In this document: piece by piece, positions 1 through 38,502 of the stretch
How the letters are laid out: each line of letters starts with the position of its first letter
How positions within the stretch are numbered: position 1 is the first letter of the stretch
Assembly: GCA_965243325.1 (NCBI GenBank)
Contig: CBDEUQ010000003.1
Coordinates: 2,020,304 to 2,084,303 of the forward strand
Source: Alphaproteobacteria bacterium
GTDB taxonomy: Bacteria > Pseudomonadota > Alphaproteobacteria > UBA7887
Direction: 5' to 3'
DNA: 64,000 nt
Notes under the pieces: model-generated
Seen by the model: the letters and a program-made list of their open reading frames with translations, nothing else
Database searches by the model: none
What the model was told of the DNA's origin: nothing
Program-made: the position numbers and the translations under genes

Positions 1-1585
<1,585 letters not shown>

Positions 1586-1994
1586 GGCGTTGTTCCTCCC
1601 TCGCGGCAAGCGGGCGCCAACAAAGGCCGGCGCGGCTGCGGCGTCAATCGAAAACCGCACTGCGCCGGCAACCCGTCAGATTCGCCCGCACGCGTCCCTA
1701 TCCGACTTTTTCCGTCCCTTTCCGTCCCGAGGCGGGGACGGCGCGGTCCGCGGTCCGACCAGGCGGCGACGGCCAGCCTGCCGGACCGCTCCGGCGGTTC
1801 ACAGCGGACCATGGTCCGCCGCCGGTCGGTGCGCGGCAGGGCGGGCTTCTCTGCGTGCCTCGTTTCCCCGGAGTAACGGACAGCGGCGCGGCTTGTCGTC
1901 CCCGGGGGCTTGGGGAACCTCGCCGGCGTTGACGTTGCGTTGTCCGCGCGCGAATCGCGGCGCCCGACGATGCCGGCATCGATTACAGGCCGGC

Positions 1995-2513
1995 CTATGC
2001 CTTCGACCCTCGCAGGGCGGAGTGGCCGAGAGGGAGGAACAAGCGCATCGGATCGTCCGTGAGCGGGGCGAAGCCGAAGCCCTCGTAGAAGAGTTTCGCG
2101 TCGTCGTTCGCGGCGTCCACGATCAGGGCGTGCATGGCCACGGTCTCGTCCGCGGCGACGACGCGCTTGACCGCATCGGCGAGAAGCATGCGGCCGACAC
2201 CGCGCCCGTGCGCCGAGCGGTCGACCGCCAGCCGGCCGATCAGGGCGCAGGGAACCGGATGGCGCGGCAGCTTCCGGGACAGTGCCTCGGGCAGCGAGGC
2301 CAGATCGACTGCCAGCGCGCTCAGCGTGTAGAAGCCGAGCACGGCATCGACGTTGCCGGCAGTGCAGACGAACACCCGGGCGATCCGGCGCCGGACATCC
2401 TGTCCGGCCTGGCGCGCCAGGTGGCGGTCGAGTTCCGGAAGGCCGCAGGAAAACGCCCTTCGGTCATGCCGCTGGCCGAGAGGCTCGACGACCAGCGTAT
2501 CGGGGGCGGTCAA
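1995..2513 (-). CDS. GNAT-family acetyltransferase, toxin of a DUF1778/GNAT (TacAT/KacAT-like) type II TA pair
   Basis: 172 aa. GNAT acetyl-CoA motif ...HGRGVGRMLLADAVK.... Overlaps the upstream DUF1778 gene by 4 nt (ATGA). Confidence 0.75.
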   Translation of the reverse strand: MTAPDTLVVEPLGQRHDRRAFSCGLPELDRHLARQAGQDVRRRIARVFVCTAGNVDAVLGFYTLSALAVDLASLPEALSRKLPRHPVPCALIGRLAVDRSAHGRGVGRMLLADAVKRVVAADETVAMHALIVDAANDDAKLFYEGFGFAPLTDDPMRLFLPLGHSALRGSKA

Positions 2514-2797
2514 CGCGATTCGACGCGCCGGGCGTGCTCCTCCAGGGCGGCGCGGAGCCGATCGTTCGGCGGCGGCGGCTCGGCCAGCGCATCGAAGAAG
2601 CGCATCGCGGCCTCGCGGGTGAGCGCCACGGCCTCGCGCCGGCCGATGGTTGCCTCCGCGCTCTCCAACGCGCTGGACACGATGAAGGCGCTGACGGTCT
2701 TGCCTTCGACGGATGCCGCCCGCTCGATACGCCGCTTCGCCGTTTCGCTGAGCCGCAGGTTGATTCGCGCACTGCGAGCCGTGTTCGCGGGGGCCAT
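2510..2797 (-). CDS. DUF1778-family antitoxin (RHH-like), partner of the GNAT toxin
   Basis: The ORF track gives 2510..3001 with a TTG start. The internal ATG at 2797..2795 gives a 95-aa product MAPANTARSARINLRLSETAKRRIERAASVEGKTVSAFIVSSALESAEA..., typical DUF1778 length and sequence. The choice of start is an inference. Confidence 0.65.
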   Translation of the reverse strand: MAPANTARSARINLRLSETAKRRIERAASVEGKTVSAFIVSSALESAEATIGRREAVALTREAAMRFFDALAEPPPPNDRLRAALEEHARRVESR

Positions 2798-3281
2798 GGC
2801 GCCGTCCTCCCTTACCGACGCCGATGTACGTCGTTCCGGTGCCCGTCGCAAGGTCGAACCGCTTCGACGCACATCCAACGGCAGTAGTTCCCGATGCGCT
2901 CGGCCAAACCCGTTGCTTTGCGGGTCAGTTACCGCCGAAGGGGCGCGTGGCGCGGATTCAACCGAGTTTTCGACCGCTCTGTCGAATCGAAGGTCGGGCA
3001 ACCCTGGTCATGCGCTATGGCTCCTGCACTCCTCCGTTATGCCCGGACTTGATCCGTGCTCCGGCTTTGCTGGCTCGGGGACGGGCTCCACCGCAGGTTA
3101 TCGCGAACGTGCGGAGCCTCAGCATCACCGGCAGCGTGTGGACCGCCCGCGCCGAGTCGCGTCGCTCGCGGACACACCCCGCAAGCGCCTCGGTCAACGC
3201 GAGCCGGTGCGCCACCGCGCCGACGCGCAGCAGCACCAGCCCGGCACCCGACGACATCGACCCGCCCTCAATACTGGCACT

Positions 3282-3466
3282 CATTTTCTTGGGTTGAATT
3301 CTTGCGGTGAATGGCTCGCAGATCGAACGGCAGAGGGGTATCTTCGGGCATGGCGGGCGTGCCGCTTTCGTCGCCGGGGCAGAAGGTCGCTGGACAACGA
3401 ATTTCTGCCCTATGACAATGACTTACGACACGTTCGCCGTCACCTCAGCCCACCGTGAGGAATAGG
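3282..3466. repeat. Copy A of a ~175-bp direct repeat (about 80% identical to copy B at 12208..12378)
   Basis: Shared blocks ggctSgcagatcgaacggcag, atggcgggcgtgScgct and gccggggcagaaggtcgctggacaacga, then atgacaaYgacttacgMcacgtt. No conserved reading frame across the indels. Confidence 0.5.
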
Positions 3467-3875: not shown

Positions 3876-4898
3876 TCAGGCGGCGGCGGGAGCCCGGTAG
3901 CTCTCCTTCTTCGTCATCAGCGCCCAGACGATGCGCGCCATCCGGTTGGCCAGCGCCACGGCGACGAGCATGCGCGGTTTGCGCGCCAGCATCCTGGCAA
4001 GCCATGGGTCGTTCGTCCTGCCGCGCCGAGCCGCCCAGCGAACGACCGCCATGGCGCCCGTGATCAGCAGCCGCCTCAAGTCACGCTGGCCCATCTTCGA
4101 TATCTTGCCCAGGCGCGGCTTGCCGCCAGTCGTGTGCTGGCGCGGCACCAGGCCGAGCCAGGCGGCGAAGTCCCGGCCGCGCCGGAAGGTCTCCATCGGC
4201 GGCGCGAAGGACTGGACCGCCATCGCGGTGATCGGCCCGATCCCCGGCACGGTCATCAGACGGCGCGCCTCCTCGTCCTGCCGGGCCACCGCCCGGATTT
4301 CCTCTTCAAGGCCATCGATCTTCTCGCCAAGCCCGGCAATCTGGTTCAGCAGAAGGCCGGCCAGATCGTGGACCGCGTCCGGCAGATCCAAGTCCGGGTC
4401 TTCAAGCGCCGACGCCAAGCGCCCGACATGGGCCGGACCCTGGGGAGCAACGATGCCGAACTCCGCCAGATGACCGCGCAAGGCGTTGATGGTCTGGGTG
4501 CGCTGGCGTACCAGGAGATCACGCGTGCGGAACAGCATGCCCCGGGCCTGCTGCTCGACGGTCTTCACAGCCACAAAACTCATCGTCGGGCGCGATGCTG
4601 CCTCGCAGATCGCCTCCGCATCCGCCGCATCGTTCTTCTGTCGCTTGACGTAAGCCTTCACGTAGGCCGGCGGAACCAACTGCACCGCATGGCCCAGGCG
4701 GCTGATCTCGCGGCCCCAATGGTGCGCACCGCCGCAGGCTTCCATCGCGACTGTGCAGGGCTGCTGCGAGACCAGAAACCCCAGCACCTTCGCCCGGCTC
4801 AGCTTCTTCCGGAACGCGACCGATCCATCGGGCCGCGCGCCGTGAAGCTGAAAGCTGTTCTTCGCGAGATCGATCCCGATCATGCTAACCTGTTCCAT
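3876..4898 (-). CDS. IS110-family transposase
   Basis: Track ORF 3876..5057. Probable start is the ATG at 4898 (MEQVSMIGIDLAKNSFQLHG..., the usual IS110-family N-terminus). The C-terminal half carries a DEDD-type motif (...MTVPGIGPITAMAV...). Confidence 0.85.
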   Translation of the reverse strand: MEQVSMIGIDLAKNSFQLHGARPDGSVAFRKKLSRAKVLGFLVSQQPCTVAMEACGGAHHWGREISRLGHAVQLVPPAYVKAYVKRQKNDAADAEAICEAASRPTMSFVAVKTVEQQARGMLFRTRDLLVRQRTQTINALRGHLAEFGIVAPQGPAHVGRLASALEDPDLDLPDAVHDLAGLLLNQIAGLGEKIDGLEEEIRAVARQDEEARRLMTVPGIGPITAMAVQSFAPPMETFRRGRDFAAWLGLVPRQHTTGGKPRLGKISKMGQRDLRRLLITGAMAVVRWAARRGRTNDPWLARMLARKPRMLVAVALANRMARIVWALMTKKESYRAPAAA

Positions 4899-5001
4899 GG
4901 ACGCCCCTTTCCTCTCTTGGCGTTTACGACACCGCCAACTTGGCACATTGCGATGCCGTCGGGAGGGGCGTCCACTCCATCGCTTACTTGGTACCGATGT
5001 T

Positions 5002-8000
5002 ATGGATACAGTAAATTTCGACCATGAGACTCGTAGAATAAGTGACCGATTCGTCACTAAGTTCGACGCGATACCGGGATTTTGGAACTATCTTATCGGC
5101 CTTGATCGCAGTGATCTCATAGCAGAGTTGGTCCAGAATGATCTGGACCAAGGAGCGACCAAAACCGTCGTCTCATTCGGGAAGACGTGTCTGATCTGCG
5201 AAGGGAACGGGGAGCCGGTCGATCCAGAAGGCTGGCAACGTCTCCAGGTGATATCGGGCGCAGGGGATGAGGTGCCTGCCAAGCGCAGCAGGTTTGGCGT
5301 CAAGAACCACGGCCTCAAGGCTGCTTTCACGATTGGTGATGAAATCCGTCTGATGTCGGCCGGCCGGACTATTGTTCAAACGCTCTACGCCAAGGGACGC
5401 CATATGCGCCCTCATCCCGGCGCGTCAGCGCACCCAATTGAAGATCGTCAAGCGCCCACTGAGGGTTGCCGCATAATCGTACAGTATCGCGACGTAGACC
5501 TCGAGCCTACTCAAGGGGAGGCCGTCAAGTTGGATGCAGTCAGCGAGGGTGAAATCGAAACACTGTTTAGGTCAGCCTGTGCAGGCATGCCTGAACAGTT
5601 CGCGGGTGTAGTCTCGCCGGAGAACACGCCTCGGTACGAAATCGTGTTGCGGCATTGGAAGCTTGGCGAAGCGCGGTTTCAGTTCTCATGTACTCGGCCG
5701 CGCAAAGCGACCAAGCGTATTGATGTCTTCCAACGGCGTTGCGCCATTAACGGGACGTACTCCGCCCTTCCAAAACCTTTGCGAGAACGAGCAGTTCGCC
5801 GCCTCGTTCCGTTGAAAGGCGTTCTGAAGGATCGGGTTGCCGATTTTTTTCGCCGCGGGAGGCACTTCTTCATCGAGGCATCGTGGCCGATTGACGTGAA
5901 GGGAAAGCCCGGAGTTGGGACCGGGAGGTATCGCTACCCAATCGGCTACCCAGCGAATTCGCGTGAGGCGCGAACGGGACATAGCACTCATTTTAATGCG
6001 CCGTTTGCTTCGAATAACGAACGCCACGCTCCCGCATGGAACGAGGCCACGAACACCGAGTTGCGTCGAGCGTGTGAATCTCTGCTAGTCGACGTGCTTG
6101 CCCTTCACGCAATTCCACGGTGGAAAGCGAACGGGTTGAATCCTGTCGTGCCGAACACCGATACTGACAACGGAAGGGAGATCGTCCGCACGCTGCTGGA
6201 GGCACTTGTCACGAGGGGAGCATTGCCTGTCCTGAGTTGGCGGCAAGCGGCCGAAGTCGCCACAAAGGTCAAAAGGATGAGCATCAGGGCGATTGCGAGC
6301 CGCCGCCCTGCTAGAGAATTTCCAAGGAGCGAGAGGCGGTACCGGTTTGTGGTGCCGGCGTTGACTTGGGCGGAGAACACCATTGAGCCATTACTGTCGC
6401 TGTTGTGTCCAACTTGGGAGAGGCAGCTCGACCCGCGCGTCAATGCAAAAATCGTTAGCTTACTGACAGACGGGAAAACCCGTGGCTTCTGCGAGGAGTT
6501 TGTCACCTTCGACGAACAGGACGTGATCGATCGGGTGACGTCACAAGGGAATGACCACTTCGGTGCGATCGCAGACCCTGAACGTGAATTTTCCCATTTA
6601 TTCTTCGTTCGCGTGTATCTGGACCTGATTGAGTTGACGCTCGAACAAGGTGACCTCGAAGCCGGGAAAGAAGACCTCCTTCGTTCAAATTTACTTCTTC
6701 CCGATATAGCTGGTCAGGTAACGTCTATGTCGGAACTCTATTCCAACGCGTCGCTTCCATCCGATATACCTGGCCTTCACTTGCCGTCCATCCTCGATGC
6801 TGGCCTGATCACGCATGCTCTTTTTAAGCGCAGAAAGTGGAGAATTCGGAAATTTACGATCGCCGAGTTCTTGGAGAGCGATACTCTTCGGACCGCTGAC
6901 GAGCAAACTCGGAGGAAGTTCTGGAAGTGGCTTTCGCGGAATGGTCGGCATATTCGGCCGCGTGACCGACCAAAGCTCGCCGAACTCGCCGTTTGGCCGG
7001 ACGAGAACGACGACCTTTGCAGGATATCCGATCTCTGCGAGCCGCGCACGGGGCGCGTTGGTACTGTGCTTGCCGGGTTCATTAGGCGACCGCACAGGGA
7101 GGTTCGCAGTTCAAGGCTCGTTTCCGTCGGGGGCAGGGCGCGTGTCTCGGTCCGACGCACGCCAACCAAGAGCGAGATCGGGGATTGGCTTGACACAAAG
7201 TTCAGGGGATTTGAGATCGGGAGCCAACCGGATGCTGCAACGGCCGCGGAGTTGCGTCGATTCGAGGGAGACCTATGTAGTCTGCTTGAGGACAGGTCCA
7301 TTGCTCCTCTGCTCACGGCGGCTGTGTCAGCGCTACCAGCGCTTGCTCGGGACGGAGCGATGCGACTGCGCACGAAGTTGGTGTTCCCGAGCCGCGGCAA
7401 CGGACGGCTCGCTCTGCCCGACCGCTTCCTGCTCTTGGATCGACGACGTGGCGCCATGCTGGCCAAGCTCTCTCCGGCGTTGAACACACCTACTGCGGCG
7501 ATGCTTTTGGACGCATTCGACGAAGATCCCGGCAACTCCTCCGTTCTGCAACTGCGACTGGCGGAAATCTTAAGAGTCACCGAAACGGATGATGACGAGC
7601 GACGTGAACTCCGAGCGAAGCCCATCATTCCTGTGGCCGGCCAGTGGCGAGCGCCCTGTGAGCTAGCCTTCACCGGCAACAGAGGCGACCACTGGGGTGA
7701 TTGGAAGACCGGCATCTCGACTGAGGGGCTGTCGCAGGACGACCAGAGGCGGTATCGAGCTGCAGGCGTAACGTCCGCCTTGCCTAATCCGACAACGAGC
7801 CGCGCCTTTTTTGGGTGGCTCGCAACGCGGGATGAACGCGTACTTCGGCGGCATATCCCTTGCATACTGCGTCATTTCCTTCTTCCAAATGGCCCTGTTC
7901 GATGGGCTCGTGACTTCGCGGACACGCCTTGTATTCCAGTGGAAGGCCAGTACGGATTGCGACTCGTATCGTTGCAAAGTGTGCGGCGCAAACCAATTTT

Positions 8001-8538
8001 CCTGCGCGACGCGGGGGATATCGGAGATGTTATTATCCAGAATGACGGCGCGGTTTTGTTGGCCATCCACCAGGCGAAGGAGGTAGCAACGCCGATCACG
8101 GAAATGTTGCGCGAGTTGGATGTCAAGTCGCTCCGCGAAGCCCTCGGGGAACCGGAAAGCGTCGCTGGCTCGGGAGATGTCGTTCCAGTCAGAGAGGATA
8201 TTCGTACTCGCTTCGATGGACTCAGTTCTTCCCCGTTCCGGCGGACGTTCCGAAAACGACTCACTGAGTTGGGTGTCGAACTTGGGTTGCTACGCAGTCA
8301 CTGGCAACGTCGGCTGGATCTTGTCCGAGGTATTCACGTCGGTGAAGATGTAGAGGTGCGATTTCGATTCCGTGGCAAACCCTACCTACAAAAAGCCGAT
8401 GCAGGATTCGATTCCGGTACCGGCATATTCTGGATGAAACAGGGCCTTGACGCTCGCAGACTGTACGAGACTATTGCCAAACAATTGATTTTCGAACCGG
8501 CGGCGAGGCCCATCGACCTCCTTGCGCTAGTGGATTGA
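5002..8538 (+). pseudogene. Segment 1 (about 1,176 codons) of a giant gene. The N-terminal domain resembles a MutL/MORC-like GHKL ATPase. The natural reading frame is interrupted at 8529/8530 by an IS630-family insertion; the present stop at 8536..8538 is IS-derived
   Basis: Track ORF 4882..8538. Likely ATG at 5002 (MDTVNFDHET...). GHKL motif I IAELVQNDLDQGATKTVVSF (compare MutL ELVENSLDAGAT), motif II CEGNGEPV (DxGxG-like), motif III G-rich GVKNHGLKAAF. GC is visibly lower than the flanks. Frame continuity with 9679..10224 and 11513..11701 was verified by hand (see findings). Confidence 0.75.
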
Positions 8539-9609
8539 TTCCAACGTTTGGAACCCTCGGTTTCTGGCGGCGATGATGTCGTCGGGGTCCGCGATCCAGA
8601 CGAAGGGCTTTGCCTCTGTCCGGTTGTGCTCGTCGATGAAGCGCTGGATGGCGTCGCGGAGTTCGTCGACGGAGCGGAACACGCCGTGCTTGAGCCGCCG
8701 GCGCGTCAGCTTGGCGAAGAAGCCTTCGACGGCGTTGAGCCACGAGCACGAGGTCGGGGTGAAGTGGAAGGTCCAGCGCGGATGCTTCTCGAGCCATGCC
8801 CGGACCGCCTTGTGCTTGTGGGCGGAGTAGTTGTCGAGGATGGCATGGATCGGCGTCCCGGCGGCGACCGTGCGTTCGATGCGTTCGAGGAAGCGCACGA
8901 ACTCCTCGTGCCGGTGACGGGCGCTGTGCTGCGAGATCACCGTCCCCTCGAGCACATCAAGGGCGGCGAACAGCGTCGTCGTGCCGTGTCGCTTGTAGTC
9001 GTGGGTCATGGTGGCACCGCGCCCTTTCTTCAACGGCAGCCCGGGCTGCGTGCGGTCGAGTGCCTGGATCTGCGACTTTTCGTCGATCGACAGCACCGCC
9101 GCATGCGCCGGCGGCTCCACGTACAGGCCGACGATGTCGCGCACCTTGTCGACGAAGGCCGGATCGGTCGACAGCTTGAACTGACGCCAGCGGTGCGGCG
9201 CGAGACCGTGCGCCTGCCAGATCGTGCGCACCGTCGAGGCGGCCACGCCCGCGGCCTTCGCCATCGCCCGCAGTGTCCAGTGCGTCGCCTCGCCCGCCGG
9301 CGGCGTCTGCGTCAGGCGTACGATCGTCGCAACCCGTGCAGGCGACAAAGGCTTCCGGCCGGGAGGCCGTGTCTTGTCCCGCAGAAGCCCGTCGACGCCC
9401 TCTTCCATGAAGCGTTCCTGCCAGCGCCAGACGCACGTCTTCGACTTCCCCGTCGCCGCCATGATCGCCATCGTCCCCAGACCGTCGGCGCTGGCCAGGA
9501 CGATCCGCGCCCGCCACACGTGCTTCTGCGCGCTGTTGCGATCCTCAACGATCGCACGCAAGCGGTCGCGATCCTCCACCGAAACCGTGAACGAAACTCC
9601 CCGACGCAT
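8527..9609 (-). CDS. IS630-family (Tc1/mariner-like DDE) transposase
   Basis: 360 aa, ...IDEKSQIQALDR...HGTTTLFAALDV...LDNYSAHKH..., ending ...TLESIH. The TAG stop (rc of 8527..8529) lies in the flanking C-TA of the CTAG target, outside the element. Confidence 0.85.
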   Translation of the reverse strand: MRRGVSFTVSVEDRDRLRAIVEDRNSAQKHVWRARIVLASADGLGTMAIMAATGKSKTCVWRWQERFMEEGVDGLLRDKTRPPGRKPLSPARVATIVRLTQTPPAGEATHWTLRAMAKAAGVAASTVRTIWQAHGLAPHRWRQFKLSTDPAFVDKVRDIVGLYVEPPAHAAVLSIDEKSQIQALDRTQPGLPLKKGRGATMTHDYKRHGTTTLFAALDVLEGTVISQHSARHRHEEFVRFLERIERTVAAGTPIHAILDNYSAHKHKAVRAWLEKHPRWTFHFTPTSCSWLNAVEGFFAKLTRRRLKHGVFRSVDELRDAIQRFIDEHNRTEAKPFVWIADPDDIIAARNRGFQTLESIH

Positions 9610-9676
9610 CGCAACCGTCCCATGACAGATCGAACAAGGGAAACAATAAAGGACTCTTCCGTCAAATACAATCCAC
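8530..9676 (-). mobile_element. IS630-family insertion sequence (1,147 bp) in a CTAG target with TA duplication
   Basis: Left junction gcgC-TA|gtggattgattcc; right junction caatccac|TA-Gaacg. Terminal inverted repeats GTGGATTG/CAATCCAC. TA copies at 8528..8529 and 9677..9678. The reconstituted target is CTAG, the classic IS630 target. Confidence 0.8.
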
Positions 9677-9678
9677 TA

Positions 9679-10224
9679 GAACGAGCTATGGAACTGGAGA
9701 TAGCCGATCCAAGTTTCGGACGGCCGGGAGGATCTCAATTGGGTGCTGGTGACGGGGAAACGGCCGCGGAGGACACCACTGGGCAGGGACAGGAAGATGA
9801 AGGGAATGGCCGGCTCGGAGAAGCGGGAAGCGGACACTCTCCGTTTGAACCGGACCCTACGCGCAATAGGCCCAAACCCGGCCCAATCTCTTCCGAATCA
9901 GCTAGACCGCCGGGACGTGCTAAGGAACAGTCCGGTTCATCGGGCTCGGGTGGGGGCGACAGCTTTAGACGCAAACCCGATCTCGAAAAGCAACACATTG
10001 AGGAGCTAAAGCGCAGCCACTATGCCAGCCATTGCCAGATGTGCTTGTGCGAACGTTCGCCTCAAGAGTTAGCTCCAGCTGGCAGCTACATTGAGGCAGA
10101 AGAAGTACGTCAGAGCGTTGTGCATGCGCACCATACCGATTTAGTGTCGGCCGGCGGCGCACGTCACGCCGGCAACATTATTCTACTGTGCAAGTTACAT
10201 CACGACAACTACGGAAGGCAATTC
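9679..10224 (+). pseudogene. Segment 2 of the giant gene: low-complexity G/S/E-rich linker plus the first half of an HNH nuclease motif, cut by the IS256-family insertion
   Basis: In frame with 8527..8529 once the IS630 and one TA are removed (cta|gaa cga gct atg...). Carries ...HYASHCQMCLCERSP...VHAHHTDLVSAGGARHAGNIILLCKLHHDNYGRQF (CxxC...HxHH...GG...N...CxxHH). Confidence 0.7.
10217..10224. repeat. 8-bp target-site duplication (ggcaattc), left copy, IS256-family copy 1
   Basis: The same 8-mer recurs directly after the right IR at 11505..11512. Confidence 0.8.
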
Positions 10225-11504
10225 GGTGACGTAAGAATTTATGTGTCAGGTGGGAAGGGGGTACTCCCTGTGGTGACGACAACCACAAACAGGAGCACCC
10301 CGCATGTCCCAGCAAGCTGCGACGATCATGAGCCTACCCCAGGCCTTTGAGGTGGTGAAGGAGATGCAGGCAGGCGGACTGGACTGGGGCGAGGGCTACC
10401 GCCCGCTCGGCCGCCAGGCGCTGGCCGAGATCATCGAGGGCCGGATGGCCGAGGCGGTGGATCGCTGGCTCGACAACCTCGACGCCGGCGCGATGCGCGA
10501 CCGGCGCAACGGGACCTACCGCCGCTGCCTGCTGAGCGAGCTCGGCGACATCGAGCTCAACGTGCCGCGCACCCGGCACTTCTGCCCGACCGGGGTTGTG
10601 AAGAGCTACGCAAGGCGCGCGCCGGAGATCGACCGTGCCATCCTGGCCGGCTTCGTGCTGGGGCTTTCGACGCGCAAGGTGGGCGAGGTCCTGCTGGCCC
10701 TGCTCGGGCGCCCGGTCTCGGCCGCGACGGTGAGCCGGGTCTCCAAGACGCTCGACATGGCGGTCGAGGCCTTCCACCGCAGGCCGCTGAAGAACGCCTA
10801 CAAGGCGCTGATGCTCGACGGCGTGGTGCTGGCCCGCAAGACCGGCGCCGGCGCGCTCAGGAGGCCGGTCCTGGTGGCGCTCGGCATCCGCCCCGACGGC
10901 AAGAAGGAGATCATCGACTTCCATCTCGCCGTCAGCGAAGGCGCCCGCGAGTGGGAAGTGTTCCTCAACCGGCTGTACCACCGCGGGCTCACCGGCGAAG
11001 GCCTTGAGATGATCTGCGTCGATGGCGGCAAGGGCCTGCTGGCTGCCTTGCCGTTCGTCTATCCCGGCATCCCGGTTCAGAGGTGCTGGGCGCACAAGAT
11101 GCGCAACATCCTCAACAAGGTCCGCAAGGCCGACCAGGAGGCCGTCAAGGCCGATGTCCACGCCGTCATGAATGCAAAGAGCCGCCGCAAGGCCCAGAGC
11201 GCCGCCCGACGCTTCGCCGACCGCTGGCAAAGCACCTACCCCAAGGCCGTCGCCTGCCTGCGCAGCGATCTCGACGAGCTGCTCACCTGCTTCCGCTACC
11301 GGACCCTCGATGAGCGAAAGCGGGTCAGGACCACCAACGCCATCGAACGAAGGTTCCGGGAGGTCCGCAGACGAACCCGGCCCATGGGAACCTTCCAGGA
11401 CCGGACCTCAATGGACCGCGTCCTCTACGCGGTATTCATCCACGAAAACAAGTCTCAGGGAATCAGCACCCCCGTCTCCCTGACACATAACTCTTGACGT
11501 TACC
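10225..11504 (+). mobile_element. IS256-family insertion sequence, copy 1 (1,280 bp)
   Basis: Imperfect terminal IRs ggtgacgtaagaatttatgtgtca and tgacacataactcttgacgttacc (rc ggtaacgtcaagagttatgtgtca). Flanked by an 8-bp TSD. Identical over its full length to 37223..38502. Confidence 0.85.
10304..11497 (+). CDS. IS256-family (Mutator-type) transposase
   Basis: 397 aa with family hallmarks ...RNGTYRR...LNVPRTRHF... and ...QRCWAHKMRN.... Identical to 37302..38495. Confidence 0.9.
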   Translation: MSQQAATIMSLPQAFEVVKEMQAGGLDWGEGYRPLGRQALAEIIEGRMAEAVDRWLDNLDAGAMRDRRNGTYRRCLLSELGDIELNVPRTRHFCPTGVVKSYARRAPEIDRAILAGFVLGLSTRKVGEVLLALLGRPVSAATVSRVSKTLDMAVEAFHRRPLKNAYKALMLDGVVLARKTGAGALRRPVLVALGIRPDGKKEIIDFHLAVSEGAREWEVFLNRLYHRGLTGEGLEMICVDGGKGLLAALPFVYPGIPVQRCWAHKMRNILNKVRKADQEAVKADVHAVMNAKSRRKAQSAARRFADRWQSTYPKAVACLRSDLDELLTCFRYRTLDERKRVRTTNAIERRFREVRRRTRPMGTFQDRTSMDRVLYAVFIHENKSQGISTPVSLTHNS

Positions 11505-11512
11505 GGCAATTC
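11505..11512. repeat. 8-bp target-site duplication (ggcaattc), right copy, IS256-family copy 1
   Basis: Perfect match to 10217..10224. Confidence 0.8.
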
Positions 11513-11701
11513 AGCCGTGCCGGAATAAGTGCGGCTCTTCGGGACAAACCGAAGAGAATGTCGGTCTGCTACGACGGGGATTTGCACGTTAGTGGCCGGC
11601 AAATTAAACTTGAGGTGTCGGGCACGGGAGAGGTCGTGAGACTCTTCTTTACCGAGCACCACATCGCATACTGGTTGTCGCAGGAGTCAGCGTCAAATTG
11701 A
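11513..11701 (+). pseudogene. Segment 3 (62 codons plus stop) of the giant GHKL-HNH gene, downstream of the IS256-family insertion
   Basis: Continues the frame ...GRQF|SRAGISAALRDKPKRMSVCYDGDLHVSGRQIKLEVSGTGEVVRLFFTEHHIAYWLSQESASN* when one TSD copy is removed. Stop at 11699..11701. Confidence 0.6.
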
Positions 11702-12207
11702 AATGCGAAGTTTTGCGATCTTACTTTTCCGCGGAACGGCGTGTTGATTGGTTAATTTCGGGAGCGCGAACTCTCGCGCGCGGCGCCGTTGGAGCGTCAC
11801 CCTTTGAGATTTTCTGTGCCTTGGTTGGGGGTTGAAGGGTCTCGTTTTTTTTGCAGTTCGCCGCGGCGGTCAGGGTTTCGGGGCAGCGAGGCGCCCGGCC
11901 AGCATTCGGATCTCCAGCGTCTCGGTTACCGCTAGCTTGGACAAATGGTCGCGGCGTAGCGCGTAGCGGTCGTCGGCATCGTTCCGCGGATCCGGCTTCG
12001 CCGGCCCGAGGACAGGCTCCCGTGCGCGTGATCGAGAACATGCGGAAGTGCAGCGTCGTTGGGAGCGTATGCACCAACTGCTCCGGCTCGCGCCATTCCC
12101 CGATGCATCCCGCAGGCGCTTTGGCCGGGCCGAGCCGGCCATCCGCGTCCCGCAGGGGCACCATTCCGCCGTTCGACGAAATCAGACCGCCCGGAAAATC
12201 GGCGCTC

Positions 12208-12378
12208 ATGCTCTTGCGTTTGACGGCTGGCAGATCGAACGGCAGACGAGTACTTCCGTAATGGCGGGCGTGGCGCTCTCGTTGCCGGGGCAGAAGGTCG
12301 CTGGACAACGATTTTCGACCTCATGACAACGACTTACGCCACGTTTACCGTTACCTTGACCGACCGTGGCGTATAAGG
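12208..12378. repeat. Copy B of the ~175-bp direct repeat (partner of 3282..3466)
   Basis: See copy A. Contains an 11-bp inverted repeat cttacgccacg...cgtggcgtaTaag. Confidence 0.5.
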
Positions 12379-12558
12379 CGGGCGAACATTCGTTGACCCT
12401 TAAACTTTACGAGAAAGTCGCCGGAGACCTCATTTCACGGTCTGTGCCGTCTGCGAATTTCCGCAATGGAAATACTAGCCGCCGGAGGCCGGGGATTCCT
12501 CCAACGAAAAGGATTCGAACCCGGCCGGGAGGAAAGTGGCGGCGGGTCTCTTCGGTGT

Positions 12559-13434
12559 TCACGGTCCGTCTTGCTCCTTGTGGAACGTGTAGAGGCGGGT
12601 GAAGTCGGCGCCGGGCATGGCCCGCTTCATGGCGCGCAGGGTCTCGCCGACGGTGCCGCCCACCGGCGCCCGTTGGCCGGCATCCTGGACGGCGGCGAGG
12701 AACAGGTCGACGTCCTTCGACAGCAGGTCGATGGTGAAGCCGGCGTCGAAGGTGCCGGTGGCGACGCGCGTCGGGAACTTGTCGCTGGTCGCCGTGTTCC
12801 GCCCCGTCGACACGTTGAGCACGGCGATCATCGTCTCGAGATCGAGGCCCTGCGCCTCGCCGAACGCCACCGCTTCGGTCGTGGCCGTCATGGAGGCGGC
12901 CGACAACACGTTGTTGAGCAGCTTCATCGCCTGGCCCTGGCCGGGCTCGGCGCCGACGTGGAACAGGTTCCGCGCCATGACGCCGAGCGTTTCCCGGTGC
13001 GCTTCGAAGCGCCCGGCGTCGCCGGAGACCATCATCGCCAGCGTGCCTTCGGCGGCGCCGCGGGTGCCGCCGCTCACCGGCGCGTCGAGGTAGGCGATGC
13101 CCGCGTCCGCAAGGGCGCGGGCGACCGCCCCTGCCGCCTCCGGCCCGATCGTCGAGTGGTCGGCGAGGCAGCGCGTCCGGCTTCCGGCGGCGGCGGCGAT
13201 TTCGCCGACGACCGCCCGGACCGCGGGTCCGTCGGGCAGCGACAGGAGCACGAGGTCGGCGGCGTCGGCGACGGCGGCCGTCGACTCGCACACCCGGGCG
13301 CCCGCCGGCGCCCGCGCGGCGGTGCCGGCGGCGTCGTACACCGCGAGCGCGTATCCGGCGTCGGCGAGGCGGCGCGCCATGCGGCCCCCCATTTCGCCGA
13401 GTCCGACGAACCCGATGACCTCGCTGTCGCTCAT
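12559..13434 (-). CDS. NAD(P)-dependent 3-hydroxyisobutyrate dehydrogenase-family oxidoreductase (HIBADH / 2-hydroxy-3-oxopropionate reductase-like)
   Basis: 291 aa. N-terminal IGFVGLGEMGGRMARRL Rossmann motif. Family signatures ...DAPVSGG... and ...KLLNN.... Confidence 0.8.
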   Translation of the reverse strand: MSDSEVIGFVGLGEMGGRMARRLADAGYALAVYDAAGTAARAPAGARVCESTAAVADAADLVLLSLPDGPAVRAVVGEIAAAAGSRTRCLADHSTIGPEAAGAVARALADAGIAYLDAPVSGGTRGAAEGTLAMMVSGDAGRFEAHRETLGVMARNLFHVGAEPGQGQAMKLLNNVLSAASMTATTEAVAFGEAQGLDLETMIAVLNVSTGRNTATSDKFPTRVATGTFDAGFTIDLLSKDVDLFLAAVQDAGQRAPVGGTVGETLRAMKRAMPGADFTRLYTFHKEQDGP

Positions 13435-13560
13435 GCGGCCGCACTCCCGGTTGCCCGGCGCGGGGGATTGTCAAGCGGCGCCGGTTGGTTATCGTTCCGT
13501 TTCACCCGAGGCCCAGCGTAGCCAATCGTGCCGGCGGGCCGCAACGCGAGGGAGGCCCAC

Positions 13561-14028
13561 GTGCGCGTGATCGAAAGCTTCGATGCGATGAAGGCCCTGA
13601 TCGGCGAGGAGATCGGCGTGAGCCCGTGGGTCGACGTGACCCAGGAGCGGATCGACAAGTTCGCCGAGGCGACGGGCGACTTCCAGTGGATCCACGTCGA
13701 CCCCGACCGCGCGGCGCGCGAGCTGCCGGGCGGCAAGACGATCGCGCACGGCTTTCTCACACTCTCGCTGCTGCCGCAGATGGTCTACGAGATCTACCGC
13801 ATCGACGGCGTGGCGCACGGCCTCAACTACGGCAGCAACCGCATCCGCTTCACCTCGCCGGTGCCGGCGGGGAGCCGGCTGCGCGCACGGCTGCGGGTCA
13901 AGCACGCCGAGGACGTCAAGAACAACGGCCTGCGCGTCATCGGCGACGTGACCATAGAACTCGAGGGCTCGAGCCGCCCGGCGTGCGTCGCCGAGACCAT
14001 ATCGGTGGTCTACCCGGCGGCGGCGTGA
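13561..14028 (+). CDS. MaoC-like (R)-specific enoyl-CoA hydratase / hotdog-fold dehydratase
   Basis: Track ORF 13528..14028. A GTG at 13561 gives VRVIESFDAMKALIGEEIGVSPWVDVTQERIDKFAEATGDFQWIHVD..., a MaoC signature. The start choice is uncertain. Confidence 0.7.
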   Translation: MRVIESFDAMKALIGEEIGVSPWVDVTQERIDKFAEATGDFQWIHVDPDRAARELPGGKTIAHGFLTLSLLPQMVYEIYRIDGVAHGLNYGSNRIRFTSPVPAGSRLRARLRVKHAEDVKNNGLRVIGDVTIELEGSSRPACVAETISVVYPAAA

Positions 14029-14041
14029 GGGGCGCGGCGGC

Positions 14042-14842
14042 TCACTTCGCGGTCAGGCCGCCGTCGAGGACGATCTCGGCCCCGGTCATCAGCGACGAGG
14101 CGTCGGAGGCGAGAAAGACGATCGCGCTCGCCACCTCGTCGGCGCGGCCCTTGCGGCCGATCGGCTGAAAGCCGCTCAGGAACGCCTGGGCCCCGTCGTA
14201 GTCCGCGTTCTGGATCTTCATCATCTTGTGCGCGACCTGATTCATCATCTCGGTCTCGATGATCCCCGGATGCACCGAGTTGACGCGGATGTTGTAGCCG
14301 AAATGCGCGCATTCGAGCGCCGCCGACTTGGTCAGCAGGCGCACCCCGCCCTTGGTCGCGCTGTAGCCGGCGCTGAGCGGCGAGCCGACGATGCCGGCGA
14401 CCGAGGAGAGGTTCACGATCGATCCGGACGCGCCGCCGGGCGGACACGTCTCCTTCAGCGTCCGCATGGCGTGCTTGACGCCGAGAAACACGCCTTCGAG
14501 GTTGATCGCGGCCTGCCGGCGCCACTCGTCGAGCGTCATCTCCTCGAGCGGTTTCTCGACGAAGATCCCGGCGTTGTTGACGACGACGTGCGGCCCGTCG
14601 TGGCGCGCCGCGGTGTCGGCGAACACGCGCGCCCAGTCCTCCTCCCGCGTCACATCGTGGGCGGCGAACGAGGCGTCGCCGCCGCCGTCGCGGATGCCCC
14701 GGACGGTCGCGGCGCCGGCCTCTTCGAGGACGTCGGTCACCACCACTGCCGCGCCGGCGGCGGCGAGCGCCTTCGCCGTCTCCGCGCCGATCCCGCGCGC
14801 CGCGCCGGTCACGATCGCCGTCCGTCCCGTCAATGCCGCCAT
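14042..14842 (-). CDS. Short-chain dehydrogenase/reductase (SDR) family oxidoreductase
   Basis: The internal ATG at 14842 gives a 266-aa product MAALTGRTAIVTGAARGIGAETAKAL... (TGxxxGIG), NNAG, and the catalytic Y-x3-K in ...AGYSATKGG.... Confidence 0.85.
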   Translation of the reverse strand: MAALTGRTAIVTGAARGIGAETAKALAAAGAAVVVTDVLEEAGAATVRGIRDGGGDASFAAHDVTREEDWARVFADTAARHDGPHVVVNNAGIFVEKPLEEMTLDEWRRQAAINLEGVFLGVKHAMRTLKETCPPGGASGSIVNLSSVAGIVGSPLSAGYSATKGGVRLLTKSAALECAHFGYNIRVNSVHPGIIETEMMNQVAHKMMKIQNADYDGAQAFLSGFQPIGRKGRADEVASAIVFLASDASSLMTGAEIVLDGGLTAK

Positions 14843-14948
14843 GAGTCCGCTCCCCGCCGCCCGGCGGCGCGAGCATAGCACGGGCCGCCGATTCGATAAT
14901 CCGCGAAGCCGCGTGTTATGACCGGGCGGCGTGCGACGGGGGGAGTAC

Positions 14949-16253
14949 ATGGCCGACGCGAAGACCGAACCGCGCGTGCCGACAAGCTTCTGGCAGTATA
15001 TCCGCTCGCTCGGCCCGGGGCTGGTGGTCGCCCTGACGTGGCTCGGCGCCGGCGACCTCGTCGATTCCGCCGTCGCGGGCGGCAACTACGGCTACACGCT
15101 GATGTGGGCGATGGCGTTGGCGCTGTTCGTCCGCTTCGTCTTCGTCTCGATCATCGCCAAGTACCAGCTCTGCAACCAGCACGGCGAGAGCGTGCTCTCG
15201 GGACTGAAGCGGGTGCACGTGGCGATGCCGCTCTTCGTCGCCGTCGTGGCGGTGATCTTCGGCCACATCTACGGCTCGTTCCTGGTGCGCGGCCTCGGCC
15301 TCGCGAGCGAGGCGCTGTTCCGCTTCGGCGACCCGTTCGTGTGGTCGGCGGTCTGGGTGGTGGCGGCGGCGGTGTTCGTGTACCGCGGCCTCTACCGGCG
15401 GCTGGAGGCGGTCTTCTACGTCTTTCTCGCCCTGCTCGGCGTGTCGGTGATCGGCGTCGCCGCGTGGAGCGGCCCCGACCCGGTGGCGGCGGCGAAGGGC
15501 GTGCTGCTTTTCGACGTGCCGGAGCAGCAGGGGTCCTACGGCGCGCTGCTCGTGATCACGTCGCTGATCGGCGCGGTCGGCGGCTCGATCGCCAATCTGC
15601 TCTATCCCTACTTCATCCAGCAGAAGGGGTGGCGCGGGCCGCGCTTCCGCCGCGTCCAGCTTTACGATCTCGCCTTCGGCGTCGGCGTGCTCGTGTTCCT
15701 CAACCTGTCGGTGTGGACCATCGGCGCCGAGGTCCTGCACGCGCGCGGCGAGACGATCGAAAGCCTGGACGACCTCGCCAAGCTGCTGACCATCGCCCTC
15801 GGCGACCTCGGCGCGCCGATCTTCTACGTCGGCGTGTTCGCCGCCGTCTACAGCTCGGTGATCGGCATGGCGATGGGCTTCGGCTATCTCGTCACCGACG
15901 CGGTACGCGTCCACCGCACGGCCGAGACGCTGCCCGCCGAGCCGTTCGACGCCGGCGCCCGGCCCGTCTACCGGATCGTCGTCGCGTGGTGCCTGTTCTC
16001 GCCGCTGGTATGGAGCCTTCCCGGCGCGCCGGACTTCATCTTCCTCACCATCGTCGGCAACGCGGCGTCGGTGATCGTGCTGCCGATCCTCTGCGGCGCC
16101 CTGTGGATTCTGACCGCGCGCCGAGTGCTCATCGGCGCCGAGTGGCGCAACAGGTGGTGGGAGAACGGCTTCCTCGCGGCGCTGTTCGTGCTGTCGATCT
16201 GGGGCGCGTGGCAGTCCGTCATCGCCATCGCCGGCGCCGTGGGGTGGGGGTAG
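14949..16253 (+). CDS. mntH: NRAMP-family divalent metal (Mn2+/Fe2+) transporter
   Basis: Track ORF 14931..16253. Probable start MADAKTEP at 14949. Multi-TM protein with NRAMP-type motifs ...LGPGLVVALTWLGAGDLV... and ...GYTLMWAM.... Confidence 0.8.
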   Translation: MADAKTEPRVPTSFWQYIRSLGPGLVVALTWLGAGDLVDSAVAGGNYGYTLMWAMALALFVRFVFVSIIAKYQLCNQHGESVLSGLKRVHVAMPLFVAVVAVIFGHIYGSFLVRGLGLASEALFRFGDPFVWSAVWVVAAAVFVYRGLYRRLEAVFYVFLALLGVSVIGVAAWSGPDPVAAAKGVLLFDVPEQQGSYGALLVITSLIGAVGGSIANLLYPYFIQQKGWRGPRFRRVQLYDLAFGVGVLVFLNLSVWTIGAEVLHARGETIESLDDLAKLLTIALGDLGAPIFYVGVFAAVYSSVIGMAMGFGYLVTDAVRVHRTAETLPAEPFDAGARPVYRIVVAWCLFSPLVWSLPGAPDFIFLTIVGNAASVIVLPILCGALWILTARRVLIGAEWRNRWWENGFLAALFVLSIWGAWQSVIAIAGAVGWG

Positions 16254-16327
16254 GCCCGGGCGGCGTGGCGCTTACGCGGCGCGCCGGGCCTTGAGCAAGG
16301 GGCCGGGCTGCCCGCGCCCCCGTCGCC

Positions 16328-37222: not shown

Positions 37223-38502
37223 GGTGACGTAAGAATTTATGTGTCAGGTGGGAAGGGGGTACTCCCTGTGGTGACGACAACCACAAACAGGAGCACCCCG
37301 CATGTCCCAGCAAGCTGCGACGATCATGAGCCTACCCCAGGCCTTTGAGGTGGTGAAGGAGATGCAGGCAGGCGGACTGGACTGGGGCGAGGGCTACCGC
37401 CCGCTCGGCCGCCAGGCGCTGGCCGAGATCATCGAGGGCCGGATGGCCGAGGCGGTGGATCGCTGGCTCGACAACCTCGACGCCGGCGCGATGCGCGACC
37501 GGCGCAACGGGACCTACCGCCGCTGCCTGCTGAGCGAGCTCGGCGACATCGAGCTCAACGTGCCGCGCACCCGGCACTTCTGCCCGACCGGGGTTGTGAA
37601 GAGCTACGCAAGGCGCGCGCCGGAGATCGACCGTGCCATCCTGGCCGGCTTCGTGCTGGGGCTTTCGACGCGCAAGGTGGGCGAGGTCCTGCTGGCCCTG
37701 CTCGGGCGCCCGGTCTCGGCCGCGACGGTGAGCCGGGTCTCCAAGACGCTCGACATGGCGGTCGAGGCCTTCCACCGCAGGCCGCTGAAGAACGCCTACA
37801 AGGCGCTGATGCTCGACGGCGTGGTGCTGGCCCGCAAGACCGGCGCCGGCGCGCTCAGGAGGCCGGTCCTGGTGGCGCTCGGCATCCGCCCCGACGGCAA
37901 GAAGGAGATCATCGACTTCCATCTCGCCGTCAGCGAAGGCGCCCGCGAGTGGGAAGTGTTCCTCAACCGGCTGTACCACCGCGGGCTCACCGGCGAAGGC
38001 CTTGAGATGATCTGCGTCGATGGCGGCAAGGGCCTGCTGGCTGCCTTGCCGTTCGTCTATCCCGGCATCCCGGTTCAGAGGTGCTGGGCGCACAAGATGC
38101 GCAACATCCTCAACAAGGTCCGCAAGGCCGACCAGGAGGCCGTCAAGGCCGATGTCCACGCCGTCATGAATGCAAAGAGCCGCCGCAAGGCCCAGAGCGC
38201 CGCCCGACGCTTCGCCGACCGCTGGCAAAGCACCTACCCCAAGGCCGTCGCCTGCCTGCGCAGCGATCTCGACGAGCTGCTCACCTGCTTCCGCTACCGG
38301 ACCCTCGATGAGCGAAAGCGGGTCAGGACCACCAACGCCATCGAACGAAGGTTCCGGGAGGTCCGCAGACGAACCCGGCCCATGGGAACCTTCCAGGACC
38401 GGACCTCAATGGACCGCGTCCTCTACGCGGTATTCATCCACGAAAACAAGTCTCAGGGAATCAGCACCCCCGTCTCCCTGACACATAACTCTTGACGTTA
38501 CC
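37223..38502 (+). mobile_element. IS256-family insertion sequence, copy 2 (identical to 10225..11504)
   Basis: Identity to copy 1 begins at ggtgacgtaag and ends at ...gacgttacc. Its own distinct 8-bp TSD. Same orientation as copy 1, offset exactly 26,998 bp. Confidence 0.85.
37302..38495 (+). CDS. IS256-family transposase (identical to 10304..11497)
   Basis: Identical 397-aa translation in the ORF track. Confidence 0.9.
   Translation: MSQQAATIMSLPQAFEVVKEMQAGGLDWGEGYRPLGRQALAEIIEGRMAEAVDRWLDNLDAGAMRDRRNGTYRRCLLSELGDIELNVPRTRHFCPTGVVKSYARRAPEIDRAILAGFVLGLSTRKVGEVLLALLGRPVSAATVSRVSKTLDMAVEAFHRRPLKNAYKALMLDGVVLARKTGAGALRRPVLVALGIRPDGKKEIIDFHLAVSEGAREWEVFLNRLYHRGLTGEGLEMICVDGGKGLLAALPFVYPGIPVQRCWAHKMRNILNKVRKADQEAVKADVHAVMNAKSRRKAQSAARRFADRWQSTYPKAVACLRSDLDELLTCFRYRTLDERKRVRTTNAIERRFREVRRRTRPMGTFQDRTSMDRVLYAVFIHENKSQGISTPVSLTHNS

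Follow-up and report, generated by a model that had tools for sequence, protein, structure and literature searches.

A probably horizontally acquired, IS-disrupted gene for a predicted sacsin-type ATPase and HNH nuclease in an alphaproteobacterial genome

Positions 5002..11701 of the window (the whole 64,000-nucleotide stretch of DNA analysed) hold a recently inactivated pseudogene, which most probably derives from a horizontally acquired, stand-alone gene for an ATP-gated single-protein nuclease, likely involved in defence. Its product falls in a so far uncharacterised family of proteins about 1,400 residues long, which matches no named defence family in profile searches; the literature searched yielded no experiment on any of its members. 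The role in defence is suggested by the genomic context and by analogy with the anti-phage protein VcSduA.

Reconstruction of the gene

The gene is preserved in three pieces.

5002..8529, plus strand: gene piece 1 (1,176 codons)
9679..10224, plus strand: gene piece 2 (182 codons)
11513..11701, plus strand: gene piece 3 (62 codons plus TGA)

For the in-silico splicing, the IS630-family element (8530..9676) was removed together with one TA, and the IS256-family element (10225..11504) together with one 8-bp duplication. Joining 5002..8529, 9679..10224 and 11513..11701 then gives one open reading frame of 4,263 nt and 1,420 aa, whose sole stop is the terminal TGA and which contains no frameshift. 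The preliminary description had proposed exactly this frame; its coordinates are right to the base, and its arithmetic is sound, as the spliced translation has no stop at either junction. The closest intact homologue, L002, is 79-82% identical at the nucleotide level, and the window positions 5047-8528, 9674-10224 and 11507-11701 align to its positions 10046-13527, 13524-14074 and 14069-14263, collinear over both insertion junctions. Furthermore, the reconstructed product is matched over 99-100% of its length, at 51-76% identity, by more than 100 uninterrupted proteins of 1,400-1,450 aa, so that, together with the collinearity of the L002 DNA, the single-frame reconstruction is far beyond chance. 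In the intact homologues, an example of which is WP_347521894.1 of Pelagibius sp. CAU 1746, the ATPase and the HNH nuclease are found in one reading frame and not as separate genes.

The start codon ATG 5002 agrees with the N-termini of the homologues, and an alternative upstream ATG at 4882 lies within IS110-proximal, non-conserved sequence. The GC content of the gene pieces is 0.55-0.61 (about 57% overall), against about 0.70 in the flanks and the host, in line with the lower GC reported at the outset.

Insertion sequences and loss of the gene

Three insertion sequences lie in the gene or directly beside it.

3876..4989 (nominal limits), minus strand: IS110-family element, directly 5' of the gene and divergent from it
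3876..5057, minus strand: IS110 DEDD transposase reading frame (Pfam DEDD_Tnp_IS110 plus Transposase_20)
8530..9676, minus strand: IS630-family insertion sequence, 1,147 bp
8527..9609, minus strand: IS630 transposase reading frame (Pfam DDE_3, 8.7e-23, plus HTH_32/29/23)
10225..11504, plus strand: IS256-family insertion sequence, 1,280 bp, with 26-bp imperfect inverted repeats
10304..11497, plus strand: IS256 transposase (Pfam Transposase_mut, 8.9e-76)

Both in-gene insertions bear the hallmarks of transposition. The IS630-family element is bordered by a TA target duplication (8528-8529 and 9677-9678), and the DNA of the homologues is uninterrupted where it sits. The IS256-family element is flanked by the 8-bp target duplication GGCAATTC (10217-10224 and 11505-11512), and a second copy, 100% identical, is found at 37223..38502 with an 8-bp duplication of its own, AGCCACTC. 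These duplications and the Pfam-assigned transposases bear out the view that two insertions inactivated the gene.

The gene is dead in this genome: the IS630-family element parts the ATPase and scaffold from the linker and HNH nuclease, the IS256-family element severs the HNH domain from its tail, and the IS110-family element sits on the promoter region. The native promoter has probably been displaced by the latter, since DNA homology to other loci begins only at about position 4990 (comparison with L004), some 12 bp before ATG 5002. As judged from the lack of any other stop or frameshift in the 1,420 codons and from the identical second IS256 copy, the inactivation is recent.

Distribution and genomic context

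The family has been found at 35 loci among 185,579 species genomes. These belong to at least 10 phyla, and the 45-70% identity between them implies horizontal transfer. Its full-length members, among 517 clusters at 50% identity, share a uniform architecture of 1,360-1,440 aa. In 149 sequences, which reach down to 24% identity, the catalytic residues of ATPase and HNH nuclease keep a conservation of at least 97%. The searches for known relatives returned zero Pfam matches for the reconstructed protein, zero families at E<=1 among the PADLOC-DB v2.0.0 defence-protein HMMs, and no significant match in a PDB sequence search; the Pfam and PADLOC results agree with the earlier remark that the protein was not recognisable as a member of any named defence family.

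The defence-island context is partial only. Some copies adjoin Mrr, GmrSD, type I restriction-modification, integrase or ICE genes, and other loci are purely housekeeping. L042 lies among sulfatase and ABC-transporter genes, and L043 is partly among housekeeping genes. No neighbour gene recurs at more than 4 of the 36 loci and no neighbour family in more than 3 of the 90 neighbouring reading frames, and the neighbourhood comparison revealed no conserved methyltransferase beside the gene. The idea of a horizontally acquired defence gene, put forward in the preliminary description, is upheld in its first half by the foreign GC and the patchy distribution, while the defence half stays a suggestion, the neighbourhoods being heterogeneous.

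This context also bears on another reading, in which the protein would act against plasmids or ICEs, or as an addiction or exclusion factor on integrative elements, sensing DNA topology or ends as Wadjet and MORC-type clamps do and cleaving incoming replicons. The Paracoccaceae copies L001 and L006 lie within an ICE-like block (TrwC relaxase, SSB, a NikA-like protein, YAcAr and an AAA_30/UvrD_C_2 helicase), at L002, L003 and L043 the gene has an integrase or a transposase next to it, and the fold matches of the ATPase module include the GHKL clamps MORC, SMCHD1 and topo VI-B, which act on DNA topology. However, conjugation genes are absent at most loci and no homologue was found among 72,556 plasmid records, so that this reading is on balance unlikely. 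Searches of phages and of IMG/VR viral contigs gave no match either, so that no vehicle of transfer emerged.

The ATPase module

The reconstructed protein can be divided into six regions, all on the plus strand.

5002..5631, plus strand, codons 1-210: sacsin/Hsp90-like GHKL (Bergerat-fold) ATP-binding domain
5632..6036, plus strand, codons 211-345: transducer (S5/Hsp90-middle-like), beta-rich
6037..8529, plus strand, codons 346-1176 (about 830 residues): large alpha/beta scaffold, confidently modelled, with no recognisable fold match
9679..10029, plus strand, codons 1177-1293: acidic, Pro/Gly-rich linker, predicted disordered, pI about 4.6
10030..10224, plus strand, codons 1294-1358: McrA-like zinc-finger HNH (beta-beta-alpha-Me) nuclease core
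11513..11701, plus strand, codons 1359-1420 plus TGA: conserved tail made of a C-terminal helix, a three-stranded beta sheet and a last helix (AF2 pLDDT >90)

Structure prediction and fold search place a Bergerat alpha/beta fold at the N-terminus, followed by the transducer domain, and the closest structural relative of the ATPase domain is the sacsin family. Of the MutL/MORC-type N-terminus first described, the Bergerat GHKL fold has stood, whereas the MORC-type sequence signature is absent (no match to Pfam HATPase_c or HATPase_c_3). The model NF047352 of NCBIfam, for a sacsin-like ATP-binding domain, matches 8 of 8 members tested at 19.3-31.1 bits (E 2e-7 to 1e-3, below its curated 50-bit cut-off), always at aa 27-118, which is the block of motifs I to III.

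Motif I reads E42-L-V-Q-N46-D-L-D49, in a region that aligns to MutL residues 23-50 (P 0.001), and E42, N46 and D49 are at least 97% conserved in 149 sequences. The same holds for the lid lysine K94, for the glycine-rich motif III (G99-V-K-N-H-G104-L) and for R311 of the transducer, which is strongly basic (pI about 11) and carries an invariant R311-Y312-P313. Motif II (G68-N69-G70) departs from the D-x-G-x-G of GHKL proteins, as no conserved Asp is found and the family has [C/S/A]66-x-G68-[N/D/V]69-G70; in an alignment with HtpG, G68/N69 stand opposite D-N. This departure fits the sacsin subgroup, since sacsin likewise has Asn160 where Hsp90 has Asp79, and this Asn has been proposed to keep the adenine contact (PMC9880540). 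The conserved E42, N46, K94, G99-G104 and R311 suggest that the protein would bind and hydrolyse ATP.

Alternatively, given the missing Asp, the GHKL module could be a pseudo-ATPase that senses a nucleotide or ligand, or else bind proteins like the module of sacsin and Hsp90; it would then sense a phage protein or small molecule and free the HNH nuclease with no ATP-driven clamp. The nearest structural relative, sacsin, is chaperone-like and its own ATP binding is debated (PMC9880540), and a conserved His motif in the acidic linker could be autoinhibitory. This is nonetheless quite unlikely, as the catalytic Glu42, the Mg-binding Asn46, Asp49, Lys94, motif III and Arg311 are conserved as an active hydrolase would show, and an Asn at motif II is the sacsin state itself.

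Scaffold and linker

Between transducer and linker, the scaffold consists of about five modules of helix bundle plus beta hairpin with many invariant Trp residues. Its net charge is basic over aa 613-1176, and its C-terminal edge is the point of the IS630 insertion. Profile and fold searches revealed no recognisable reader domain for modified DNA in the protein, since aa 346-1176 have no assigned fold.

The linker has an AF2 pLDDT <50 except for a conserved motif, GEAGSGHSPFEPDPTRNRPKPGPIS (9817..9891; pLDDT 71-94), in which His1229 is at least 97% conserved. The motif persists in members at 27-30% identity, and the helix after it runs into the HNH domain.

The HNH nuclease

The nuclease core holds the motif H-C1295-Q-M-C1298 ... 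H1327-H1328 ... G-G ... N1342 ... C1347-K-L-H1350-H1351 and is interrupted by the IS256-family element 3 codons past G1355. The HNH C-terminus claimed earlier is supported: C1295, C1298, H1327, H1328, N1342, C1347, H1350 and H1351 are invariant in 113 sequences, most motif residues are at least 97% conserved in 149, and hhalign against EcoKMcrA (residues 206-256; P 7.3e-5) pairs all motif elements one to one. The AF2 model gives a strand-strand-helix core with pLDDT >90, for which the best low-rmsd Foldseek matches, ScoMcrA (E 0.17) and Gme HNH (E 0.39), are not significant. In 3 of 7 relatives, Pfam HNH and HNH_2 score 12.7-14.5 bits, short of the 21-bit cut-off; the window protein itself gives no such match. 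One NCBI record labels a family member 'HNH endonuclease signature motif containing protein'. The C-terminal tail packs behind the core in the AF2 model, is collinear with the homologues, and has G1386, H1408 and W1412 at least 97% conserved (149 sequences).

A MutL-like repair or recombination enzyme, i.e. an ATPase-coupled nicking endonuclease with an accessory housekeeping role outside any conflict system, is very improbable, given a nuclease nearest the type IV restriction enzymes McrA and ScoMcrA, an extremely patchy occurrence (35/185,579 species), the horizontal transfer implied by 45-70% identity across phyla, a GC foreign to the host, IS-driven loss that recurs in 6 genomes, and the lack of a conserved MutS-like or other repair partner.

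Comparison with known systems

The nearest known analogue is VcSduA, a single protein with a GHKL domain, a clamp-like middle domain and a nuclease, whose anti-phage activity requires both ATPase and nuclease (PMC12137116). Stand-alone paraMORC3-nuclease fusions had been predicted in 2008 (Iyer, Abhiman and Aravind; PMC2292703). Like VcSduA and the paraMORC3-type Shedu (type I-D), the window protein combines in one polypeptide a GHKL domain with transducer at the N-terminus, an extensive middle part and a nuclease at the C-terminus. Its gene likewise stands alone, has no conserved partner genes, and shows a distribution that is sporadic and laterally mobile. However, the Shedu nuclease is a DUF4263 PD-(D/E)xK domain rather than an HNH (beta-beta-alpha-Me) one, and the window ATPase is of the sacsin/Hsp90 type. 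VcSduA itself has only a few hundred residues, as the numbering of K557A in its C-terminal nuclease domain indicates, and the window protein, with its 830-residue scaffold and acidic linker, is more than twice as long. Membership in Shedu was rejected for lack of the DUF4263 PD-(D/E)xK nuclease domain (no Pfam or PADLOC match of DUF4263/Shedu models at E<=1). Membership in MORC or paraMORC1-5 was likewise rejected, as there is no MORC-type signature, the nuclease is HNH rather than RE-fold, and no operon is conserved, with SF-II helicase, methylase or restriction-endonuclease genes absent as conserved neighbours.

For the ATPase, the nearest structural type is the N-terminal plus middle domains of sacsin SR1 and Hsp90 (PDB 5v44), although sacsin combines three of these modules with DnaJ and HEPN domains and is chaperone-linked, whereas the window protein has one module plus an HNH nuclease. 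Its HNH core pairs motif by motif with that of EcoKMcrA, ScoMcrA gives the best, though not significant, low-rmsd structural match, and as with these enzymes there is no cognate methyltransferase. The window protein differs from McrA and ScoMcrA in having no recognisable SRA, SBD or other modification reader, in an 11-residue insertion between CxxC and HH, in its extra beta tail, and in the coupling of the HNH nuclease to an ATPase, which McrA lacks. MutL also joins GHKL and transducer through a linker to a C-terminal endonuclease, of a fold different from HNH; in contrast to MutL, the window family has no MutS partner, is accessory and patchy, and has a far larger middle scaffold.

Proposed mechanism and significance

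Somewhat more tentatively, the family may be the first representative of a kind of single-protein defence system not yet described. Its sacsin-type GHKL ATPase would power a scaffold of about 830 residues, a new type of sensor or clamp, and the scaffold would control a McrA-like HNH nuclease by way of the acidic linker and its invariant His motif. If so, the sacsin ATPase module would have a relative in prokaryotes that is coupled to a nuclease; as animal antiviral and death-domain proteins also contain this module, the bacterial protein could serve as a tractable model of how it works.

From the anatomy described above we infer the following steps, each of them conditional. The protein would be an ATP-gated clamp, like MutL, MORC and VcSduA, in which ATP binding would make the N-terminal domains dimerise. 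DNA would be bound by the transducer and scaffold, which are basic, the linker being acidic, and the conformational cycle would license the tethered HNH nuclease to cut. Since neither a methyltransferase nor any other partner is conserved, the choice between self and non-self would have to lie in the protein itself, which may read DNA modification or structure, in a type IV-like manner, or fire on an infection cue, as an abortive system. Such an enzyme would come at a cost, which would account for its repeated destruction by insertion sequences: independent insertions are found in the homologous loci L024, L025, L028, L032 and L037, which brings the count to at least 6 genomes including the present one.

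Reconstruction of the interrupted gene

When the segments 5002..8529, 9679..10224 and 11513..11701 of the window (+ strand) are spliced in silico, they form a sequence of 4,263 nt that translates into 1,420 residues with one terminal TGA. The preliminary description had proposed that these three pieces belong to one open reading frame of 1,176 + 182 + 62 codons, and these counts proved exact. The observation of one reconstructable gene split by insertion sequences (IS) is thereby confirmed, and the window copy is a pseudogene. Since the reading frame contains, insertions aside, no stop and no frameshift across 1,420 codons, the inactivation is young. The start codon, ATG 5002, agrees with the N-termini of homologues, and the DNA homology to other loci starts only about 12 bp before it. 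An upstream ATG at 4882 was ruled out as the start, because homology begins near 4990 and the homologous N-termini fit ATG 5002.

A search of 5.8 billion proteins with the reconstructed product retrieved 255 relatives, over 100 of which are unbroken proteins of 1,400-1,450 aa that match 99-100% of the product's length with 51-76% identity. The same database also contains the truncated annotation from the window, of 1,178 aa. Intact homologues occur, for instance, in Pelagibius sp. CAU 1746 (WP_347521894.1) and in Rhodophyticola porphyridii ac11 (NZ_CP159473.1). The locus of the closest intact homologue (L002) is collinear with the window DNA over both insertion sites. Across 35 species-level genome loci, tblastn mostly aligned residues 1 to about 1415 in one piece and one frame, and this holds also for copies from Dehalococcoidia at 32% identity. 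When 1.84 billion cluster representatives were scanned exhaustively with HMMER, the family grew to 517 clusters, whose full-length members are uniformly 1,360-1,440 aa long down to 27% identity. Every motif is kept in the seven full-length distant members inspected (27-30% identity).

One possible case of ATPase and HNH encoded by separate genes is L030/P0192 (27% identity). Its HNH part reads in the +1 frame from an ORF of its own, with a 23-nt overlap: the ORF 9896..13411 ends within the acidic linker, and 13389..14048 encodes the linker-HNH part. An indel error in this nanopore-derived metagenome-assembled genome (MAG) and a natural two-gene variant are equally likely explanations.

Insertion sequences and recurrent loss

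The following elements interrupt or adjoin the gene in the window:

8530..9676, 1,147 bp: IS630-family element, transposase on the (-) strand with DDE_3/HTH domains, TA/TA duplication, termini GTGGATTG...
10225..11504, 1,280 bp: IS256-family element, Mutator-type transposase, 26-bp imperfect inverted repeats, 8-bp duplication GGCAATTC
3876..5057 (-): IS110-family transposase gene, divergent from and immediately adjoining the GHKL-HNH start codon

As had been noticed, two IS insertions break the gene: inverted repeats or target duplications were found together with the transposases, and each interruption is a classic transposition event. The IS630 element parts the ATPase-scaffold from the linker-HNH region, while the IS256 element lies three codons past G1355 and severs the HNH core from the beta tail. 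A second copy of the latter at 37223..38502, which has a separate 8-bp target duplication AGCCACTC, is 100% identical over 1,280 bp, which points to recent IS256 activity in this genome. The IS110 ORF is listed to 5057, but its Pfam domain begins at residue 60, and the true transposase start is probably near 4890. The lower GC of the gene reported earlier was also found: the gene pieces are at 0.55-0.61 and the flanking DNA at about 0.70.

Two N-terminal fragments of DDE_Tnp_1_4 (IS1380-like) transposases on the (-) strand, at about 3090-3290 and 12030-12233, flank the IS110 and GHKL-HNH block and are about 71% identical to one another. In L002, an intact DDE_Tnp_1_4 transposase lies 190 bp upstream of the GHKL-HNH gene. 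The fragments may be the remnant of the vehicle that brought the gene. Around this island, the long ORFs 1584..3458 (+), 12466..13521 (+) and 14918..16294 (+) have no Pfam match at E<=1e-3, and some of them may be spurious in DNA of 70% GC.

Loss of the gene is recurrent. In at least five other species-level genomes it has been independently disrupted by IS of other families, counting Pfam-confirmed insertions only:

Independent IS disruptions in other genomes (gene at 10001 onward in each locus)
L024 and L032: IS1380-like (DDE_Tnp_1_4), after aa ~428 and ~761
L025 and L037: IS3-type, at aa ~635 and ~684
L028: IS66, after aa ~515

Frameshifts in the nanopore-derived MAGs L016, L030 and L034 were left out of this count as evidence of pseudogenisation. 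The window copy is a clear natural case of three insertion sequences shutting down a gene that is presumably costly.

The ATPase module and scaffold

The order of the domains (GHKL ATPase, scaffold, linker, HNH nuclease) and the remaining anatomy of the protein can be regarded as nearly certain. Residues 1-1176 were modelled by AlphaFold2 from a 113-sequence alignment with a mean pLDDT of 85.9. A Foldseek search of this model against the PDB gave 231 matches at E<=1e-3, led by HtpG, Hsp90 and TRAP1, followed by GyrB, MORC3, ASFV topo II and MORC2. At the sequence level, the sole library match is to NCBIfam NF047352, the sacsin N-terminal ATP-binding-like domain, found within aa 27-118 in all eight members tested and below the cut-off in each. 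Apart from this sub-threshold match, scans of the full protein with Pfam, PADLOC and NCBIfam returned nothing; Pfam gave no HATPase_c or HATPase_c_3 match in the window protein or its relatives, and none of the PDB sequences matched the family profile at E<=10 in hmmsearch. The NF047352 signal and the lack of HATPase_c and HATPase_c_3 matches therefore indicate a GHKL module of the sacsin/Hsp90 type. Thus, the GHKL fold of the preliminary description holds, but its assignment to the MutL/MORC type does not. A MutL-like role in repair is an unlikely rival reading.

The ATPase centre is conserved: E42, N46 and D49 (motif I), G68/G70, K94, G99-K-N-H-G104 and R311-Y-P are kept at >=97% in 149 sequences reaching down to 24% identity. 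The canonical Asp of motif II is missing, and the family carries G-N-G instead. In sacsin, Asn160 replaces Asp79 of Hsp90, and a lid Lys and the catalytic-loop Arg474 are also found (PMC9880540). Plausibly, N69, K94 and R311 correspond to these three sacsin residues. A non-hydrolysing sensor module in place of an ATPase is a less likely alternative, and the family would offer a bacterial testbed for whether sacsin-type modules hydrolyse ATP and what hydrolysis gates. Within the scaffold, only weak signals of internal repeats were seen (P 0.001-0.005 between three of five modules), and no repeats are claimed.

The linker and the HNH nuclease

The C-terminal 244 residues were modelled separately. 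In this model the linker is disordered; it is acidic (pI ~4.6) and contains one better-ordered conserved stretch, the motif GEAxxGHSPFxPDPxRNxPxPxPIS, present as GEAGSGHSPFEPDPTRNRPKPGPIS at 9817..9891 (aa 1223-1247), which reaches a pLDDT of 71-94 (AF2) and whose His1229 is >=97% conserved down to 24% identity. It may serve as an autoinhibitory or docking element or contribute to the active site. The domain that follows is well ordered (pLDDT >90).

The C-terminal HNH motif described earlier is confirmed: C1295-x2-C1298, H1327-H1328, N1342 and C1347-x2-H1350-H1351 do not vary among the 113 aligned sequences. When 139 C-termini were combined into a profile, it aligned to residues 206-256 of E. 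coli McrA (P 7.3e-5) with all motif elements matched. Pfam HNH was sub-threshold in three of seven relatives, and the best low-rmsd Foldseek neighbours of the C-terminal model were the HNH domains of ScoMcrA and Gme, none at a significant level. By fold the protein is a member of the GHKL superfamily, and by motif one of the HNH superfamily.

Relation to known systems and proposed mechanism

GHKL ATPases coupled to nucleases are well known from conflict systems and from DNA repair, as in MutL, paraMORC3/Shedu I-D and topo VI. The nearest experimentally supported analogue of the family is VcSduA, a single protein of the Shedu family that combines a GHKL domain, a clamp-like middle domain and a PD-(D/E)xK nuclease, and whose anti-phage activity is lost on mutating either ATPase or nuclease (PMC12137116). 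As early as 2008, stand-alone fusions of paraMORC3 with a nuclease had been predicted (PMC2292703). In contrast to the known GHKL-nuclease conflict systems, the family has a different ATPase subtype, scaffold and effector: it combines a sacsin/Hsp90-type ATPase, an 830-residue scaffold and an HNH effector. The protein falls outside MORC/paraMORC, Shedu, NF047352 (by score) and every PADLOC family, in line with the earlier remark that no named defence family was recognised in it. Pfam, PADLOC and PDB sequence searches miss the family, and no description of it was found in the searched literature on sacsin-like proteins, GHKL-nuclease defence, paraMORC and DUF3883.

The architecture suggests an ATP-gated clamp nuclease. 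In such a mechanism, ATP would drive dimerisation of the GHKL domains, DNA would be held on the basic transducer and scaffold, and the dimerised, DNA-bound state would allow the flexibly tethered HNH domain to act. The protein itself would tell self from non-self, whether it reads a modification or structure or responds to an infection trigger.

Genomic context and distribution

The gene stands alone: clustering of 1,392 flanking ORFs gave no family in more than four of 36 loci, and PADLOC and Pfam scans found none more than three times among 90 neighbouring ORFs. The neighbourhoods of individual loci are mixed in gene content:

L002: Mrr, HsdM, GmrSD, transposase
L003: complete type I R-M system, integrase
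L001: ICE-like block
L043: MNT, NYN and AAA_14 genes, integrase
L042: sulfatase and ABC-transporter genes

A defence or conflict function appears somewhat more probable than other roles, the main competitor being an anti-plasmid role or competition among mobile elements. Should the family prove to be a defence system, it would represent a new single-gene type.

Its distribution is that of an accessory, mobile gene. A pattern scan of 185,579 species genomes found it in no more than 35, spread over Alpha- and Gammaproteobacteria, Rhodothermales, Acidobacteriota, Gemmatimonadota, Thermoleophilia, Latescibacterota, Dehalococcoidia, Opitutales and Binatia; its ~500 sequence clusters come mostly from uncultured environmental bacteria. 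No match was found in 72,556 plasmids, 50,697 phages and the IMG/VR viral contigs. Identities of 45-70% between phyla argue for horizontal transfer. Of the proposal of a horizontally acquired defence gene inactivated by IS, the transfer and the inactivation are supported, and the defence role is inferred. Several copies (L004, L017, L018, L031 and others) come from MAGs of different phyla whose isolate names share one binning series (COS1/COS2/COS3_bin, SB0661_bin), which hints at cross-phylum exchange inside one habitat.
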